NCBI GenBank assembly: GCA_965648905.1
Contig: CBFGIT010000010.1
Location: forward strand, 1 to 64,000
DNA length: 64,000 nucleotides
Origin: a candidate division WOR-3 bacterium
GTDB taxonomy: Bacteria; Hydrothermota; Tepidihabitantia; Tepidihabitantales; Tepidihabitantaceae
Reading direction: 5' to 3'
Below the pieces are notes generated by a model. The model was given only the letters and a program-made list of their open reading frames with translations. It did not search any database and was not told the origin of the DNA. This document shows, in pieces, positions 15,748 through 23,452 of this stretch. Positions within the stretch are counted from its first letter, which is position 1. Each line of letters starts with the position of its first letter. Both the position numbers and the translations under genes were made by a program.

Positions 15748-17700
15748 GTGATTAGTTTGGCCGGAGTTGCGGTCGAATTCGGAACCCAGGAACTTTACAG
15801 CGACGTGAATCTGTTCGTGGGCCCGAATGACCGAATCGGGCTTGTCGGTGCAAACGGCAGCGGCAAGTCGACCATCCTGAAGATGATTGCCGGCATGCAG
15901 GAGCCGACCCGTGGGCAGATTGACATCCGCAAAGGCACACGCATCGCCTATCTTGCCCAGACTGGGGCCGTGGTCGGGGACCGGACCGTACTTGAGGAGG
16001 CTCTGTCCGCATTCTCTCATCTTGATGAGATTCACTCAGAGATGGTCGAGCTTGAACACCGGATGCACGATGCCAGCATGCCCGAGCAGGAGTTGAACGC
16101 GATTCTCGCCCGGTATGCCGTGCTGCAAGGGTATTACAGCGCCGATGCCTATGACCGTGAATCGCGGGCCGAGAAGACACTCATGAGCTTGGGCTTCGCC
16201 GAGGAGGACTTTGCCAAGCCGGTTCGCCAGCAGTCGGGCGGGTTCCAGGTGCGCCTGGCCCTGGCGCGCGAGTTGCTGGAAGAGCCGGACGTGCTGCTGC
16301 TGGACGAGCCGACCAACTACCTTGACATCCGCTCGATCGAGTGGCTCCAGAGCTATCTGGCCGAGTTCTCCGGCGCGGTAGTGATGATCGCCCATGACCG
16401 ATATCTCCTGGACGCACTGGTCCAGAAGATCTGGGGCATCGAGTCGCGCAAGGTGCTCATCTACCCGGGCAACTACTCTGATTACCTGAAGGACAAAGAA
16501 CTGCGCGACGAGCGTCAGGCCAAGGACTACGAAGAGCAGCAGCAGTTCATCAAGCGCACCGAGCACTTCATCGCCAAGTTCAAGGGACGAAAGGACACGG
16601 CCAAGCGGGCAATGAGCCGACAGAAGATGCTTGACCGGCTTGAGCTGGTTGAAGCGCCCCAGACCGCGCCCGTCATCAGGATTCGCTTCCCCGAGGCCGA
16701 AGAAGTCTACGGCAAGGCATTCGAACTGAAGGGCGTGTCCAAGTCCTTTGGCCCGAAGCAGGTGCTTTCTAACGTTGACCTGGTGGTGGGCGGGGGCGAA
16801 AGAATCGGCCTGTTCGGCGCAAACGGCCAGGGCAAAACGACCCTGCTCCGGATGATTGCCGGGCAGCTTGAGCCTGATTCGGGTTCGGTCTGGTTGAGCC
16901 AGAAGAGCCAGATTGCCTACTACGAGCAGGGCGCAGAAGAGAAGATTGCCCCGGACTTGACCGTGCTTCAGGCCGCGGCCCAGTCCGGAGCCGGATTCAC
17001 CGAAAACGAGCTCAAAGGCATTCTCGGCACGTTCCTGTTCTCAGGCGATGCGGTGGAGAAGAAGGTCGGCGTGCTGTCGGGCGGTGAGCGGTCGCGCCTC
17101 GCGATTGTGCGGGCGCTGCTGACGCCGTCGAACCTGCTGATACTGGACGAGCCGACCAACCACTTGGACATCCAGTCGCGCGAGATTCTGTTCGAGGCGA
17201 TGAGCCGTTACCAGCGGACCATCGTCTTCGCCGCGCACGACCGATACATGCTCGACAAACTCGCCGACAAGACCGTGCGCGTGGAAGGCGGGCAGGCAGT
17301 GCTTTTCCCGGGCAACTACGCCTACGCATCATCGAGGGCGAAGAGCGCGAAGTCAACAGCCAACAGCCAACAGGCAGCAGCCAAGAGCCAGAAGCCAGGG
17401 GCCAAAAGTCAGGGGCCAAGAGCCAAGAGCCAAGAGCCGGAAGCCAAGGGCCAAAAGCCAAGAGCCAAGACCCCAGGTGCCAAGTCCGTGGCCCATGGTC
17501 TGAAGTCCACCGCTTCGCCTGTTGACCGCGTGGCAGAAGCGAGGCGCAGACTGGCAGAGATAGAGCGGGAGCTGCTTCAGGCCAAGGCAGCGTTCGACCT
17601 GAACCGGGCCCGGGCCCTGAACCAGGAGCGCAAGGAGCTTGAGCAGGAACTCGAGGCCCGCAAAGCCGATGAGGTCGAGTCTGGCAGGATATCCCCATGA
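15748..17700 (+). CDS. ABC-F family ATPase (tandem ABC domains, no TMD; Uup/YheS/EttA-like) with C-terminal Lys/Ser/Gln tandem-repeat linker and coiled coil
   Basis: Two Walker A (GANGSGKST; GANGQGKTT), two ABC signatures (LSGGFQ; LSGGERSRL), two Walker B (LLLDEPTN; LILDEPTN). Confidence 0.85.
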   Translation: MISLAGVAVEFGTQELYSDVNLFVGPNDRIGLVGANGSGKSTILKMIAGMQEPTRGQIDIRKGTRIAYLAQTGAVVGDRTVLEEALSAFSHLDEIHSEMVELEHRMHDASMPEQELNAILARYAVLQGYYSADAYDRESRAEKTLMSLGFAEEDFAKPVRQQSGGFQVRLALARELLEEPDVLLLDEPTNYLDIRSIEWLQSYLAEFSGAVVMIAHDRYLLDALVQKIWGIESRKVLIYPGNYSDYLKDKELRDERQAKDYEEQQQFIKRTEHFIAKFKGRKDTAKRAMSRQKMLDRLELVEAPQTAPVIRIRFPEAEEVYGKAFELKGVSKSFGPKQVLSNVDLVVGGGERIGLFGANGQGKTTLLRMIAGQLEPDSGSVWLSQKSQIAYYEQGAEEKIAPDLTVLQAAAQSGAGFTENELKGILGTFLFSGDAVEKKVGVLSGGERSRLAIVRALLTPSNLLILDEPTNHLDIQSREILFEAMSRYQRTIVFAAHDRYMLDKLADKTVRVEGGQAVLFPGNYAYASSRAKSAKSTANSQQAAAKSQKPGAKSQGPRAKSQEPEAKGQKPRAKTPGAKSVAHGLKSTASPVDRVAEARRRLAEIERELLQAKAAFDLNRARALNQERKELEQELEARKADEVESGRISP

Positions 17701-18107
17701 AGTTCGGGGTCAGCTCGGACAAAGAGGCGGCTCTGGCCGCGCGGCTTGCGGCACTGGGCGTTGATGAATCAGACATCATGGAGAAGTTCGTCCGGGCGCG
17801 CGGGCCGGGCGGACAGAACGTAAACAAGACCTCGACCGCGGTTTACCTGAAGCATCTCCCCTCAGGCATCGAAGTGAAGATGCAGCAGGAACGGTCTCAG
17901 GCATTGAACCGGTTCCTGGCCCGGCGTGTGCTGGCCGACAAACTCGAAGCTCTGACCAGGAAGCAGCAGACCGAAGAACAGGAACGCATCGCCCGAATCC
18001 GGCGTCAGAAGCGGAGGCGCTCAAGGCGCGCGCAGCAGAAAGTACTTGCGGCCAAACGCCACCGCAGCCAAGTCAAACACGCCCGCTCAGAACCCGAGCC
18101 GGACTAG
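17697..18107 (+). CDS. arfB: Alternative ribosome-rescue factor / peptidyl-tRNA hydrolase ArfB-like (RF-1 domain protein)
   Basis: GGQ motif (RGPGGQNVNKTSTAV) plus basic C-terminal tail; ATGA overlap with ABC-F. Confidence 0.8.
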   Translation: MKFGVSSDKEAALAARLAALGVDESDIMEKFVRARGPGGQNVNKTSTAVYLKHLPSGIEVKMQQERSQALNRFLARRVLADKLEALTRKQQTEEQERIARIRRQKRRRSRRAQQKVLAAKRHRSQVKHARSEPEPD

Positions 18108-18239: not shown

Positions 18240-18674
18240 ATGTCCGCGAATAGCGCCGAAGCCGACAAGAGCCAGGAGCGTTTCTATGACGCCCTGAAGG
18301 AGCTGTTCGTCGGCGCGAAGGTCGAGGGCGAGTCGGGCTTCATCAACCTGATGCGCATCAAGTCGCGCTACTACACCGACGGCGTGTTCCCCAGGCTCCA
18401 GAAGGACATCGAGGCCGCGCTCAAGTCGCTGGGACATGACCCGAATGTCCGACATTCGGGATCGTGTCCCGAAAGCGCCTCATTCCGGCAGGAGCTGTTC
18501 GACAAGCTCTACGACTTCTTCCACCGCTACTTCAGCCCGAGCGGGTCAATCTACTTCCAGCACACGCCGTCCCACAAGAACATCTACGAGAAGGTCTACA
18601 CCGACGACCGGGACGTAGTGCTCTTCTGGAAGACCCACGAGCGAGACGCGAGGAGAGCCTCGGTCAGAGGGTAA
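18240..18674 (+). CDS. Hypothetical protein (144 aa) at island border; same frame as the next ORF, separated by a single TAA
   Basis: ORF with lower GC3 than backbone; no recognisable domain. Confidence 0.4.
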   Translation: MSANSAEADKSQERFYDALKELFVGAKVEGESGFINLMRIKSRYYTDGVFPRLQKDIEAALKSLGHDPNVRHSGSCPESASFRQELFDKLYDFFHRYFSPSGSIYFQHTPSHKNIYEKVYTDDRDVVLFWKTHERDARRASVRG

Positions 18675-18680
18675 GACCAA

Positions 18681-20147
18681 GTGATGAACCGTCGTTCGTT
18701 CAAGACCGACGAGAGTTTCCTGGAGAAACTGGTTATCGGTGCCACCGGAGCACGCGCGGTCAGGGAAGACCTTCGCCGTCAGGGTCACGATCCAATTGTG
18801 CTTGAGCGCGGCTCGATGGACTACAAGATCTGGAAAGACATCAAGATCAAGCGGGTCCGAGTACCCGACATCCTGTGCCTGCGTTGCGCGACCCGGTTCG
18901 AGGCAAGAGCCAAGACAAGGCTGGAGATCACCGCATCGCACTCAAAGGCCGACCCGGCGCGCGGCTGGGACCAGGGACTTTCCGACAACGACATGCTGGC
19001 TCTCGCTCTGTGCAGCAAGAGTGGCCCACGGCCGGTTGACTGCGTTGCCTCGGGGTCGGTGCAGTATGTCTCGGTGAAGGCGTTGCGCCGCGCCTACGCT
19101 GACGGGAAGGTCGTAGAAGAAAAACCCAAGGGCGCGGGAGAAGGATTCGAACTCCGCGTAACCTGGCCGAGCGCAGTCGCCAGCGCCGGTGGGAACGTCG
19201 TTGAGGTGTCATCGTCTCGATTGCAGTACCGGCGTTTGAGCGACGGTCGTACCATTTCACTCAAGCTCGCCCGAGACCCTATCCCCCTCAAGCCGCTGGT
19301 CAAGGTCGGTGACGATGTGCGGGCGAGCCAAGTCATTGCCTCGGTCGTTCCAGTGTCAACATCCTTTGTCTGCCCCGCGGGTGCAACTGCCGGCACCTTT
19401 GCGAAGATGCTCGCGTCGTCCTCTGTTGCCGAACGCTACGCCGCGGCAAAGGCACTCGGTCACTTCAAGGGCGACAAGACCATCGCCCTGCTCACCAGGC
19501 GCTTGAGCGACGACAAGGAACACATCTACGTCCGGCTAGAGGCTGCGGCCAGTCTTGTCGTACTCGGGCACGAGTCCGGGATGGACTTTATCCGCGCAGT
19601 CCTCCAGGGTGAGTACTTCGAGCACCGGCTTGAGGCCGTCATCATTCTTGGTGAGGTGAAGACCGAGCAGGCAAGAGCCTTGCTCGCTGACGTTCTATTG
19701 GATGCGGAACAGCCGCCGGAGATAAGAGCCGGCGCGGCTTGGGCGCTCGGGGAGTTGGGCCAGGCGAAAAGCACGGACGCTCTGGTGCAGGCGTTCACGG
19801 AAATCGCCGAACCCATCCGCATCGAGGCCGCCCGGGCACTGCGCAAGATAATCGCCGGCACGAAGCTGCAGGCGGCAGCCCTGCTGCCTGACAGCCTTGA
19901 GGACCAAAGGGCCGGAATCGCCTGGGCACTGAGCAGGTCGGGTCGAATTGACGTGGACGAACTCGTCGCCGCCCTGAAGAACGACGACACCCGCCGTTGG
20001 GTTGCCTACGTGCTCGGAACTCAGGACGAGAGAGCCTTCATCGGCAGGCTCGAACAACTGCGCCGAGTTGACCCGGAGGTCTACTTCGCGGTGACGGTTC
20101 TCTGGCGGGTGATGTCCAGTTGGGTGTACAAGCTTGAGGAGTACTGA
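18681..20147 (+). CDS. Two-domain protein: unassigned N-terminal domain (about 240 aa) plus C-terminal PBS-lyase-type HEAT repeats
   Basis: C-terminal repeated AAxALG..gd..a...L...L.D....VR..Aa.AL units (HEAT/PBS lyase-like); N-terminus has no obvious family; GTG-ATG start 6 nt after upstream TAA. Confidence 0.6.
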   Translation: MMNRRSFKTDESFLEKLVIGATGARAVREDLRRQGHDPIVLERGSMDYKIWKDIKIKRVRVPDILCLRCATRFEARAKTRLEITASHSKADPARGWDQGLSDNDMLALALCSKSGPRPVDCVASGSVQYVSVKALRRAYADGKVVEEKPKGAGEGFELRVTWPSAVASAGGNVVEVSSSRLQYRRLSDGRTISLKLARDPIPLKPLVKVGDDVRASQVIASVVPVSTSFVCPAGATAGTFAKMLASSSVAERYAAAKALGHFKGDKTIALLTRRLSDDKEHIYVRLEAAASLVVLGHESGMDFIRAVLQGEYFEHRLEAVIILGEVKTEQARALLADVLLDAEQPPEIRAGAAWALGELGQAKSTDALVQAFTEIAEPIRIEAARALRKIIAGTKLQAAALLPDSLEDQRAGIAWALSRSGRIDVDELVAALKNDDTRRWVAYVLGTQDERAFIGRLEQLRRVDPEVYFAVTVLWRVMSSWVYKLEEY

Positions 20148-20151
20148 GTCC

Positions 20152-21231
20152 GTGAGTCAATTGCCTGAGCCGCTCTATACAACTCAGTGGGGCAAGGCCT
20201 ACGTCGGTGACTCCCTGGCTCTACTTCCGGAACTCCCCGCGGAATCGGTGGACCTCATCGTAACCTCGCCGCCTTTCGCCCTGCAGAGAAAGAAGGAGTA
20301 CGGCAACGAAGACCAGGACGCCTACGTTGACTGGCTGCTTCAGTTCGCGGAACCTATCAAGCGCGTCCTGAAAACCACCGGCAGCTTCGTAATTGACTTG
20401 GGCGGCGCCTATCTCGCTGGACGCCCGACCCGGTCACTGCACAACTACCGTCTGCTGCTCCGATTCTGTGATGGGCATGACTTTCGCCTCGCCGAGGAGT
20501 TCTTCTGGCACAACCCGGCCAAGCTCCCGTCGCCCATCGAGTGGGTCAACAAACGCAAGCTGCGGGCCAAGGACTCAGTCGATACAATCTGGTGGCTGTC
20601 CAAGACCGACTACCCGAAGGCTGATGTCCGGAAAGTCCTTGCGCCCTATTCAGAGCGCATGAAACAACTGCTGGCCGACAGCGAGCGATTCTACACGCCC
20701 AAGAAACGTCCATCTGGGCATGACATCAGCAGCCGGTTTGCGGACAGCAACGGCGGTGCCATCCCGTCGAATCTTCTGCAGATTCCGAACACGGAAAGCA
20801 ACTCTCCCTACCTGCGCCGTTGCGCTTCCGTGGGCGCAAAGGGTCACCCTGCCCGTTTTCCTGAGAAGCTGCCAGCCTTCTTCATACAGTTCTTGACCGA
20901 CCCCGGCGACTTGGTCCTCGACATCTTCGCCGGCTCCAACACCACCGGCGCAGCGGCTGAGCACGCAGGCAGAAACTGGCTCGCCTTCGAGAAAGACCGG
21001 ACGTACCTGGCAGCGTCTGCGTTCCGATTCCTCGACACCGACGATCCTGACGAGCTTGCCGACCTCTGGCGAACGACGACATCACTGGATGAGACGGTTG
21101 AGATACGTCCGCGGCAAGCCGAGCTGCTGATGCGAGACGCAGCCAGTGACGGCGCTGCAACGCACGGCGAACTGAAGATGGCGCGCCGGAAGTCGCGCCC
21201 TTCTCATGATAGGCGAAGGAGCGTGCGCTGA
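20152..21231 (+). CDS. DNA methyltransferase, beta-class N4-cytosine/N6-adenine family (N6_N4_Mtase-like), orphan or partner of unknown restriction enzyme
   Basis: Motif IV DLIVTSPPF precedes motif I VLDIFAGSNTTGAAAE (circularly permuted beta-class order); RBS gaggag upstream of GTG 20152 (ORF track extends to TTG 20134); last about 60 aa Arg-rich and non-conserved-looking. Confidence 0.85.
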   Translation: MSQLPEPLYTTQWGKAYVGDSLALLPELPAESVDLIVTSPPFALQRKKEYGNEDQDAYVDWLLQFAEPIKRVLKTTGSFVIDLGGAYLAGRPTRSLHNYRLLLRFCDGHDFRLAEEFFWHNPAKLPSPIEWVNKRKLRAKDSVDTIWWLSKTDYPKADVRKVLAPYSERMKQLLADSERFYTPKKRPSGHDISSRFADSNGGAIPSNLLQIPNTESNSPYLRRCASVGAKGHPARFPEKLPAFFIQFLTDPGDLVLDIFAGSNTTGAAAEHAGRNWLAFEKDRTYLAASAFRFLDTDDPDELADLWRTTTSLDETVEIRPRQAELLMRDAASDGAATHGELKMARRKSRPSHDRRRSVR

Positions 21232-21465: not shown

Positions 21466-22014
21466 GTGGCAATGCAGAAAGGCGAAAATGGCTTCGCGTG
21501 TTTCCTACTGAGCCTGCTGACGCTGGGAATAATCCGATTCTTCAGCGTCCCCCAAGGATACGTTAGATTCGTTACGGCCTTCGGCAAGTTTCGCAGGAAA
21601 TGCGAACCCGGCCTAGGCCACTGTGTTTCATTCTTGGGTCTATACCAGAAGCCCACACGGCTCGTGCCCATCATGGAGCAGGTACGCGACTATCCCAAGG
21701 AAAGCGTATTCACTCGCGATGGCGTTAAGTGCAGGATTGACTCGGTTGTGTTCTTCACCATCAAAGACTCCTTCAAGGCTGTCTTCGAGGTTGAGGACCA
21801 TGAGGCGGCGATCTTCAGCCTTGTACGCGCCACCCTGCGCAATGAGTGTGGGAACCTCGCGGCCCGTGAACTTCTGTCGGGTAGGGAGAGACTGGCAGAT
21901 AGACTTCGGAGTCAGCTCGACAAAGACACTGAGCCGTGGGGCATTTCCGTCAGGCTGGTTGAGATTACCGACATAGCCATGACGGTCAACGACAAAGAGG
22001 AGGTGCTAACATGA
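21466..22014 (+). CDS. SPFH/band-7 (stomatin/prohibitin-like) membrane protein
   Basis: N-terminal TM helix then SPFH domain (VPQGYVRFVTAFGKFRRKCEPGLGHCVSFLG...TRDGVKCRIDSVVFFTIKD...WGISVRLVEITDI). Confidence 0.75.
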   Translation: MAMQKGENGFACFLLSLLTLGIIRFFSVPQGYVRFVTAFGKFRRKCEPGLGHCVSFLGLYQKPTRLVPIMEQVRDYPKESVFTRDGVKCRIDSVVFFTIKDSFKAVFEVEDHEAAIFSLVRATLRNECGNLAARELLSGRERLADRLRSQLDKDTEPWGISVRLVEITDIAMTVNDKEEVLT

Positions 22015-22451
22015 TGTCCGTGAAAGCTCTTGATGAGGATGTCCGTCCCGTAGTAGACGAACGCGAGCTGCTGCAGTTCGAGGCCGAGAACGTACGGACC
22101 TTCTATTCCTTGACGGCCCCGGCCCGCAAGGAGTACACGATCCAGATGGCCGAGGCGGAGGCGGAGAGAATACGTATCGTGCGGAAAGCGCAAGCCGAGG
22201 GCATACTCGCCATCCGCAAGGCGGAGGCAGAAGGCTACAAGCTAATGGGCGAGGCCCTCGCGCAGTGCGGACAGGCCGAACAAGTGCTTAAGCTCGCAGG
22301 GCTCGTGGCACTGCAGGACGTCGCGCGGTCGCTGGCAAACGGCACAGCGACGAAGATACTGCTTCCTCACGGTATGGGTGACATTTTCTCGCTTGTTGCA
22401 GGTTGGAAGGAAATCCTGGCGTCGGCCTCACCCACTGCGAGTCCGGACTGA
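22011..22451 (+). CDS. Coiled-coil protein resembling the C-terminal AERE/AEGE helical region of band-7 proteins; ATGA-coupled to upstream SPFH gene
   Basis: QMAEAEAERIRIVRKAQAEGILAIRKAEAEGYKLMGEA resembles post-SPFH helical region; 4-nt ATGA overlap suggests translational coupling rather than random frameshift. Confidence 0.5.
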   Translation: MMSVKALDEDVRPVVDERELLQFEAENVRTFYSLTAPARKEYTIQMAEAEAERIRIVRKAQAEGILAIRKAEAEGYKLMGEALAQCGQAEQVLKLAGLVALQDVARSLANGTATKILLPHGMGDIFSLVAGWKEILASASPTASPD

Positions 22452-22524
22452 TGAGAACAGCGCCTCAACCCTGCGATAGCCCAGACCGGGGAGTTGTGCG
22501 TTTCACAGAGAGGAGGTGATCCCG

Positions 22525-22929
22525 ATGGCCACCAAGAAGTGTCCGACATGCCCATTCAGCTACGACACTGACAAGAAGGACTCCTACCAAGAGTGCTCTG
22601 AGTGCGGGGCTCGTTTCTGCAACAGCTGCGCCGGCAGACACGGCTGGAAGTGCCCCGTATGCAAGAGCCCATTTGGTCGACTCGAGCACCCGCCAGGCTG
22701 CTCTCGAAGGACGAACCGACTGCGAGGGTTACCCGTCTCCTCCGCTGAGGGGATAGAAGCTCATGGCCCTAACGCTCCTCCAAGACATGGTCGAGGGCAG
22801 GCCCTATCAGTCCCTTCCGGCCAACTGGAGTTCGTTCGACCTGAAGAGCTTCTCGCGGCAGAAGCAGCTTTGGGGCTATCAGCAGCAGGCCGTCGCGTCG
22901 GCAGTGGTCGCGTTGTGGAAGTACTATGA
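22525..22929 (+). CDS. Small 8-cysteine zinc-ribbon protein (functional part about first 55 aa; long 3' tail probably not real)
   Basis: AGGAGG RBS 7 nt upstream of ATG 22525; CPTC-x11-CSEC-x5-CNSC-x7-CPVC; tail is low-complexity and overlaps next ORF. Confidence 0.45.
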   Translation: MATKKCPTCPFSYDTDKKDSYQECSECGARFCNSCAGRHGWKCPVCKSPFGRLEHPPGCSRRTNRLRGLPVSSAEGIEAHGPNAPPRHGRGQALSVPSGQLEFVRPEELLAAEAALGLSAAGRRVGSGRVVEVL

Positions 22930-23452
22930 GGACTTCGGCGACTACCAGCGCGGCGAGAGCTTGGACGTGAACCTGGAGCGGAAGCGGCGGTTCTGTCTGT
23001 GGTATCAGGATAACGAACTGCCGCAGGGGATAAACCTGACGCTGTCGCGGCTCGGGCGGCACGTGCGGATGCTCGACGACTACTACGACACGGCGGCGGG
23101 CCTGCCTGCCGCGACGCGGAATGCGGCGCAGGCAGGCGAGATTCCGTTTGAGAGCATCGTCAATCGGATGTGCTTCTGGATGGCAACCGGTTCCGGCAAG
23201 ACGTTGGTGCTGGTCAAACTCGTCGAGGTTCTGCGCGGGTTGATTCTGGCCGGTGAGATTCCGCCGAATGACATCCTGGTGCTGACGCATCGGGAAGACC
23301 TGATTGAGCAGCTCAAGCGCCACGTTCAGGAGTTCAACTCCTCGCGCAATGACCTGTACATCCGACTGCGGGAACTGAAGGAATACGCCGAGGCGAAGTG
23401 GGAGAATCCAACCGCTTCGCGGCCAGGGCAAAGGTCAAGGCGAGAGGAATGA
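22763..23452 (+). pseudogene. Truncated SF2 helicase / type III res-like ATPase N-terminal fragment (motif I and Ia only)
   Basis: Q-motif-like GYQQQAV, Walker A MATGSGKTLVLV, motif Ia ILVLTHREDLIEQ; ORF ends before DEAH box; downstream about 700 bp lacks ORFs. Confidence 0.55.

Follow-up and report, generated by a model that had tools for sequence, protein, structure and literature searches.

A HEAT-repeat protein of 488 amino acids (aa) is encoded at 18681-20147 on the forward strand of a 64-kb stretch of DNA from a candidate division WOR-3 bacterium (contig CBFGIT010000010.1, positions 1 to 64,000; this whole stretch is referred to below as the window). The protein is considered, with a probability of roughly 0.8, to be the restriction endonuclease (R) of a two-gene Type II system specific for CAGCTG, with the M.PvuII-like methyltransferase (M) that is encoded directly downstream as its partner. 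A preliminary description of the window had put forward the N-terminal domain of the HEAT protein as the nuclease missing beside this methyltransferase. That proposal is supported on five independent counts: by the fold of the domain, by the invariance of its putative catalytic residues, by strict pairing with a methyltransferase gene across genomes, by a gene order that places the HEAT protein in the R slot of related cassettes, and by depletion of CAGCTG from the DNA of the hosts.

In the proposed mechanism, the methyltransferase would N4-methylate the inner cytosine of CAGCTG on host DNA, and the 488-aa protein, recognizing the same sequence on its own, would cut unmethylated CAGCTG in incoming DNA. 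Cleavage would be the work of an N-terminal PD-(D/E)xK core (residues 1-140), for which E42, D63, E74, R/K76 and K78 are the candidate catalytic residues. A positively charged barrel domain (residues 141-235) and a basic loop (residues 46-61) probably supply DNA contacts, and the acidic HEAT solenoid (residues 236-488) is most likely a dimerisation or regulatory scaffold and not a DNA-binding surface.

Gene, domains and putative active site

The open reading frame (ORF) specifies 488 aa when read from GTG 18681 and 487 aa when read from ATG 18684. The ATG is the start used by gene callers and, lying behind a GAGGG ribosome-binding site (18668-18672, + strand), is the likelier of the two; an exact copy of the 487-aa product is present, without a name, in the public protein collection. 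(NCBI labels on family members read "HEAT repeat domain-containing" or hypothetical.) A word-indexed search returned 163 homologues at E<=1e-3, an exhaustive search with a hidden Markov model returned 420 clusters (50% identity) at E<=1e-3, with full-length members nearly all ~485-530 aa long, and when one genome per species was scanned, relatives turned up in 199 bacterial and archaeal species genomes. The region is thus far from being a chance ORF. Its relatives occur in Nitrospirota, Verrucomicrobiota, Planctomycetota, Chloroflexota, cyanobacteria and Desulfobacterota, in Methanothrix, Methanophagales, Methanoperedens and Thermococci, and in other groups. No homologue was found in the plasmid and phage collections searched, and a promoter/terminator scan gave nothing exceeding shuffled expectation.

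The preliminary description had treated 18681-19400 (+ strand; residues 1-240 of the 488-aa ORF, with which the peptide quoted at the time agrees) as a single N-terminal domain of ~240 aa. This segment does lie ahead of the HEAT repeats, but it consists of two domains. Residues 1-140 (18681-19100) form a PD-(D/E)xK, restriction-endonuclease-like nuclease core with a net charge of +10, and residues 141-235 (19101-19385), also of net positive charge, form a sandwich-barrel hybrid beta domain of the biotinyl/lipoyl, LytM or RNA polymerase SBHM-like kind. The PBS-lyase-type HEAT repeat solenoid occupies residues 236-488 (19386-20147, all three on the + strand). Pfam matches to residues ~240-470 are to HEAT_2 (5.9e-21, 75 bits against a cut-off of 27.7) and, above its gathering score, to HEAT_PBS (1.3e-9, 38 bits against a cut-off of 20.9), and designed AlphaRep HEAT proteins match this domain at up to 3e-16.

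AF2 models of the N-terminal part match the restriction-endonuclease-like fold, with its alpha-beta-beta-beta-alpha-beta core present, and do not show the non-catalytic continuation of the solenoid that would have spoken for a different function. Residues ~140-235 resemble the sandwich-barrel hybrid domains of RNA polymerase beta (8.6), the LytM domain of EnvC (8.4) and biotinyl carriers (7.6), and residues 141-235 show the barrel-sandwich hybrid fold; Foldseek against the PDB found this barrel domain and nothing else. The best structural matches of the nuclease core are the resolvase Hjc and the homing endonuclease I-Ssp6803I, and this raises the alternative of a structure-specific or homing nuclease that serves mobility or maintenance of the module and not defence. 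Such a function is very improbable: Hjc and I-Ssp6803I are simply the fold in its minimal form, several Type II enzymes come close to them in score, and an obligatory methyltransferase, control by a controller (C) protein and genome-wide depletion of CAGCTG (see below) would all be left unaccounted for.

Conservation within the putative restriction endonuclease was followed in two sets of sequences, a close set of 74 intact genome homologues and a distant set of 86, the latter made up of the window protein and 85 representatives of 50%-identity clusters that are 25-54% identical to it. The putative catalytic motif (18864-18914, + strand) starts with P62-D63 at the beginning of beta2 and ends with E74-x-R76-x-K78 in beta3 (strands 63-66 and 72-78 in the models); the models put E74, R76 and K78 on one face of the strand that follows the P62-D63 strand. 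An acidic/basic pattern loosely reminiscent of PD-(D/E)xK cores had been noticed in this region before, and it survives as a cluster of invariant D, E and K residues, but the spacing is PD63-x10-E74-x-R76-x-K78 and not D-x12-E-x3-K. In the close set, P62, D63, E74, R76, K78, S86-H87-S88, R94, W96 and D104 are 100% conserved, as are K150, E154, E157 and W162, which belong to an invariant loop of the barrel domain (K150-x3-E154-G-x-E157 ... W162, within 19101-19385, + strand). In the distant set, D63, E74, K78, S86, R94, W96, D104, E157 and W162 remain 100% invariant; no homologue compared lacks D63, E74 or K78. Position 76, the canonical lysine site, is always basic, being R in 77 and K in 9 of the 86.

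Three further elements of the core can be singled out on the basis of conservation. E42, in the LERGS motif just after beta1 (18804-18806, + strand), is a candidate extra metal-binding acidic residue; it is E in 73 of the 74 close homologues, and E in 83 and D in 3 of the distant set. The loop of residues 46-61 (MDYKIWKDIKIKRVRV; 18816-18863, + strand) is inserted between beta1 and beta2 and precedes the PD motif. It is strongly basic (KIWKDIKIKRVRV), with K49, W51, K55, K57, R58 and R60 at least 97% conserved, and its model confidence (predicted local distance difference test score, pLDDT) is low, 47-56, which fits a loop that becomes ordered upon ligand binding; it may be a DNA-contacting arm. 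The S86-H87-S88 loop that comes after the catalytic strand (18936-18944, + strand) is a possible DNA-recognition element. Among distant members S86 is invariant and position 87 is H or D. The idea that H87 versus D87 acts as a specificity switch was rejected, because members with D87 pair both with M.PvuII-like methyltransferases and with a second, unrelated kind of ~595 aa.

The methyltransferase partner and gene pairing

The M.PvuII-like N4-cytosine DNA methyltransferase is encoded at 20134-21231 (+ strand). It starts at TTG 20134, overlapping the endonuclease gene by 14 nucleotides (nt), or, more probably, at GTG 20152, which is preceded by a GAGGAG site at 20137. The beta-class N4/N6 enzyme that had been recognized beside the HEAT protein matches PF01555 at 5.8e-41 and PADLOC MTase_II at 5e-147, and turns out to be a close homologue of M.PvuII (PDB 1boo), which it matches at E 3.6e-129, collinearly and almost without gaps over ~302 residues. 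M.PvuII itself methylates CAGCTG at the N4 position of cytosine, and it is the close collinear homology of the two proteins that points to the inner cytosine of CAGCTG as the probable target of the window enzyme.

The pairing of the two genes was followed in genome loci from bacteria and archaea, 80 of them kept from the scan of one genome per species and 7 fetched earlier. The three-part ORF is followed directly by the methyltransferase gene in about 75 of the 80 genomes, and in every locus with enough flanking sequence. The partner methyltransferases are 59-92% identical to that of the window (60-77% in most loci). In these loci a single frame encodes both the N-terminal region and the HEAT domain. 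The 73 intact genome homologues are 484-495 aa long, most often 488 aa. When the flanks were clustered all against all, no further conserved gene emerged, and of the C gene, Vsr and SPFH genes sought beside the module in the window's subfamily, none is conserved. Only the endonuclease and the methyltransferase are shared among loci, which implies that the module is autonomous and mobile. The closest genome relative is L008 (contig CAZAKP010000021.1), in which both genes are 90-92% identical to those of the window; its endonuclease ORF has 522 aa and a rearranged C-terminus, a gap of ~270 nt precedes its methyltransferase gene, and its flanks are unlike the window's.

Seven distant members of the family (P0251, P0268, P0164, P0183, P0204, P0269 and P0151) were looked up individually. 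In the first five of these, the HEAT-protein gene lies directly downstream of a gene for a helix-turn-helix (HTH) protein of 61-109 aa, abutting or overlapping it, and an N6_N4 methyltransferase gene is divergent from the pair. The HTH protein of locus L092 finds its best PDB matches in the controller proteins C.BclI (4e-15) and C.AhdI (2e-14), and also matches C.Esp1396I. The HEAT protein accordingly occupies the R slot of a divergent M / C-R cassette in five of the seven distant loci. This layout is the PvuII system's own, and a position directly behind a controller protein is typical of toxic endonuclease genes. The remaining two members are arranged differently: P0269 (L090) has its methyltransferase gene downstream and two HTH genes upstream that do not abut, and P0151 (L093), on a short contig, has a methyltransferase fragment downstream.

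Five of the seven distant loci contain an M.PvuII-like methyltransferase that is 62-69% identical to the window's, and the HEAT proteins of those loci are ~30-36% identical to the window protein over the N-terminal region. Loci L088 and L096 pair the HEAT protein, its architecture kept, with an unrelated methyltransferase of ~595 aa (L088, 314-2110; L096, 1579-3363; both - strand); the family consequently has at least two types of partner. The methyltransferases of L088 and L096 are 45% identical to each other; both are marked by an FxGxG motif in the N-terminal part, several pairs of CxxC and a DPPF motif late in the sequence.

The HEAT-endonuclease ORF is frameshifted or truncated in ~10 of 84 loci (L001, L003, L005, L007, L021, L030, L044, L049, L076 and L087), often with the methyltransferase gene intact. 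Disruption of R with M intact is the usual pattern of decay of a toxic endonuclease gene; assembly errors are a possible alternative. (In L004, an IS200-type Y1 transposase gene follows a truncated gene.) Decay of this kind, together with the pairing and the conservation, bears on a quite improbable explanation, according to which the N-terminal domain is catalytically dead or has a function other than restriction (as a DNA-binding regulator or a methylation reader), the methyltransferase is effectively an orphan, and avoidance of CAGCTG comes from another or a lost endonuclease. Against it stand the absolute invariance of D63, E74 and K78 over 25-100% identity, the position of the HEAT protein directly behind controller proteins, the broken R copies just described, and the lack of any other conserved neighbour; in addition, neither the window nor any locus has an R.PvuII-like gene, as judged with an R.PvuII sequence as the query.

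Avoidance of CAGCTG and the HEAT solenoid

If the HEAT protein is the nuclease of a CAGCTG-specific system, its hosts might be expected to be poor in that sequence, and they are. Expected counts were taken from a maximal-order Markov model, with Poisson P values. CAGCTG occurs twice in the window (at 22623 and 58149) against 23.4 expected, an observed-to-expected ratio (O/E) of 0.09 (P 2e-8), and 34 times in the 84 host loci (808 kb) against 202.5 expected (O/E 0.17; P 1e-48). Among the 64 six-base palindromes, and likewise among all 2,078 strand-symmetrised hexamers, none is more depleted, the next lowest hexamer being GAGCTC at 0.50; 57 of 74 intact loci contain no CAGCTG site. One-mismatch neighbours are undepleted (CAGCTC, for example, occurs 87 times in the window with 58 expected). 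Loci with a disrupted gene or without a methyltransferase are equally depleted (5 against 27 expected, small numbers), and because the depletion is the same there, these loci are uninformative as an internal control; recent decay or assembly errors may account for it. Two other sequences are scarce in the window. GATC is under-represented (106 observed, 282 expected; O/E 0.38) and TTGCAA is absent (3.7-13.9 expected), a hint that the host genome is under additional restriction pressure.

According to Rusinov et al. 2015 (PMC4687349), such avoidance is caused by orthodox Type II systems alone, in which R and M act independently of each other, and not by systems of Types I, IIG, III or IV (the threshold for under-representation used there is Kr<0.78, a compositional ratio that differs from the O/E used here). 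An orthodox Type II system is typically recognized by avoidance of its site and by control through a C protein (PMC4687349), and the sensor-effector defence architecture to which the HEAT protein had been likened in the preliminary description finds no support. The same comparison bears on the notion, loosely following the logic of Type III or Type IIG enzymes, that the restriction subunit is blind to sequence and that its HEAT solenoid docks on the methyltransferase, which would read CAGCTG for both. In its favour, the two genes abut or overlap in ~75 loci, which suggests that their translation is coupled and their stoichiometry fixed; the acidity of the HEAT domain, common to all members, is more in the manner of a protein-protein than of a DNA-binding surface; and in distant pairs the methyltransferase is much better conserved, at 62-69% identity, than the nuclease protein, at 25-37%. 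A docked enzyme of this kind is nevertheless improbable. Strong avoidance is reported for independent R and M and not for Types I, IIG and III, the five distant members with a controller have a divergent, separately transcribed M and C-protein control of R alone, and the two members with the unrelated ~595-aa methyltransferase retain the same HEAT architecture, which is hard to square with a specific docking interface.

Several points nonetheless weigh against identifying the HEAT protein as the endonuclease that cuts CAGCTG. Residues 1-240 are without a sequence match in Pfam, NCBIfam, PADLOC or the PDB, and no sequence link to a characterised nuclease was found; searches with this segment yielded HEAT repeats and a marginal match to the RNA polymerase beta barrel, and nothing for the nuclease part. 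Alignment with R.PvuII by hhalign gives a probability of 0.3, and there is no Pfam hit. The canonical lysine site is mostly occupied by arginine, with the invariant K78 two residues further on, which is an unusual spacing, and the apparent clustering of D63, E74, K78 and other conserved residues in space is read from strand register in the models only. Avoidance of CAGCTG demonstrates restriction pressure in these hosts without identifying the protein that cuts. One locus with an intact module, L057 (Pleurocapsa minor GSE-CHR-MK 17-07R), shows no avoidance (9 sites against 13.2 expected in 12.7 kb), although it could be a recent acquisition or an inactive copy. In the window's subfamily, R lies upstream of M and abuts it without a controller, an awkward arrangement for safe establishment in a new host.

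The HEAT domain, of ~250 residues, is kept at nearly fixed length across bacteria and archaea. Its net charge averages -9.6 and ranges from -28 to -1 across homologues; it is negative in every one, in contrast to the positive net charge of the nuclease and barrel domains, and this argues against the HEAT domain being a DNA-binding surface. The solenoid might be thought of as a regulatory module, either an intramolecular DNA mimic or latch that holds the nuclease inactive until freed by dimerisation or by a cellular or phage cue, or else a dock for the methyltransferase. This is a speculative suggestion, and rather unlikely to be right. If true, a latch or docking of this sort would explain safe entry into new hosts with R before M and no controller, and a regulatory HEAT domain would define a new class of regulated Type II enzymes with at least two types of methyltransferase partner.

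Neighbouring genes, significance and known systems

The CAGCTG module of the window lies among what may be remnants of another system. Only 6 nt separate the endonuclease gene from the end of an upstream fragment (18240-18674, + strand) that encodes 144 aa from the N-terminus of a type III-like Mod methyltransferase (PADLOC PDLC03638 at 1e-36, covering profile positions 4-115 of 816), and a 229-aa ResIII helicase fragment with motif I (22763-23452, + strand) lies 4 kb downstream. Together the two look like a decayed type III system which the CAGCTG module and its neighbours interrupt. The interval from the methyltransferase gene to the Res fragment contains, at 21466-22451 and 22516-22929 (both + strand), two ORFs in succession of the SPFH/Band-7 and flotillin-like kind and a small ORF for a zinc-ribbon (IBR-like) protein, which accompany the module in no other genome compared; the CAGCTG site at 22623 falls in the zinc-ribbon ORF. 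Further upstream, a 136-aa RF-1-domain protein (17697-18107, + strand; Pfam RF-1 at 5.4e-26), an ArfB or peptidyl-tRNA-hydrolase-like rescue factor, is encoded by an ORF that overlaps the stop of an ABC-F ATPase gene (15748-17700) by 4 nt.

If the HEAT protein does cut DNA, a widespread family of Type II restriction enzymes (420 clusters, 199 species genomes) has been missed by current annotation. The nuclease part is covered by no model in PADLOC, Pfam or NCBIfam, and genomes that carry the module are for this reason scored as orphan-methyltransferase genomes. The family would be a candidate source of new CAGCTG-cutting enzymes and a likely barrier to transformation in environmental lineages, Chloroflexus, Synechococcus, Methanothrix and ANME archaea among them. 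One methyltransferase lineage would be shared by two endonucleases that look unrelated, R.PvuII with 157 aa and the present enzyme with 488, and the family raises the question of what part a rigidly conserved, acidic HEAT solenoid plays in a restriction enzyme, and what part a barrel domain. We know of no described restriction enzyme with a HEAT-repeat or sandwich-barrel hybrid domain, and full-text searching of the literature turned up neither such an enzyme nor any paper connecting HEAT repeats with restriction enzymes. The combination of nuclease core, barrel and HEAT solenoid is accordingly a restriction enzyme architecture undescribed in the literature and databases searched, with a "putative" entry in REBASE a possibility.

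The archaeal Hjc resolvases and I-Ssp6803I show a sequence identity of only 6-20%, stand alone at ~120-150 aa and have no methyltransferase partner; the protein analysed here has, in addition, a 16-residue basic insertion between beta1 and beta2 and the E-x-R-x-K variant of the motif. The likeness of the HEAT region to NblB and CpcE, which match it weakly, and to AlphaRep, which matches it strongly, is one of repeat type only. The score against NblB is 30.8 bits, with an NCBIfam equivalog cut-off of 300, and the family, which occurs in archaea and in non-phototrophs, has no phycobiliprotein context. A parallel in general design is offered by multi-domain Type II enzymes such as the Type IIE enzymes EcoRII and NaeI, in which extra domains attached to the PD-(D/E)xK catalytic domain modulate binding or activity. 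The protein described here likewise joins a PD-(D/E)xK domain to extra domains, but its HEAT domain, being acidic, is unlikely to bind a second DNA site as the accessory domains of Type IIE enzymes do.

The PvuII system has the same methyltransferase lineage as the module, presumably the same CAGCTG site and, in some members of the family, a like layout. R.PvuII, however, is a single-domain enzyme of 157 aa, whereas the enzyme here has 488 aa and additional barrel and HEAT domains, and the window's subfamily differs from the PvuII system in lacking a C gene and in having R upstream of M. A diverged R.PvuII was suspected from the motifs (LERGS..PD..ExRxK..SHS compared with PGREGND..ELK..STHHH), and was dropped in view of the hhalign result and because PvuII is not the top structural match. 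With no profile similarity, and a structural score no better than those to other members of the fold, the endonuclease is placed outside the R.PvuII family (Endonuc-PvuII). In these terms the module is ordinary Type II logic carried by an undescribed and widespread endonuclease architecture.

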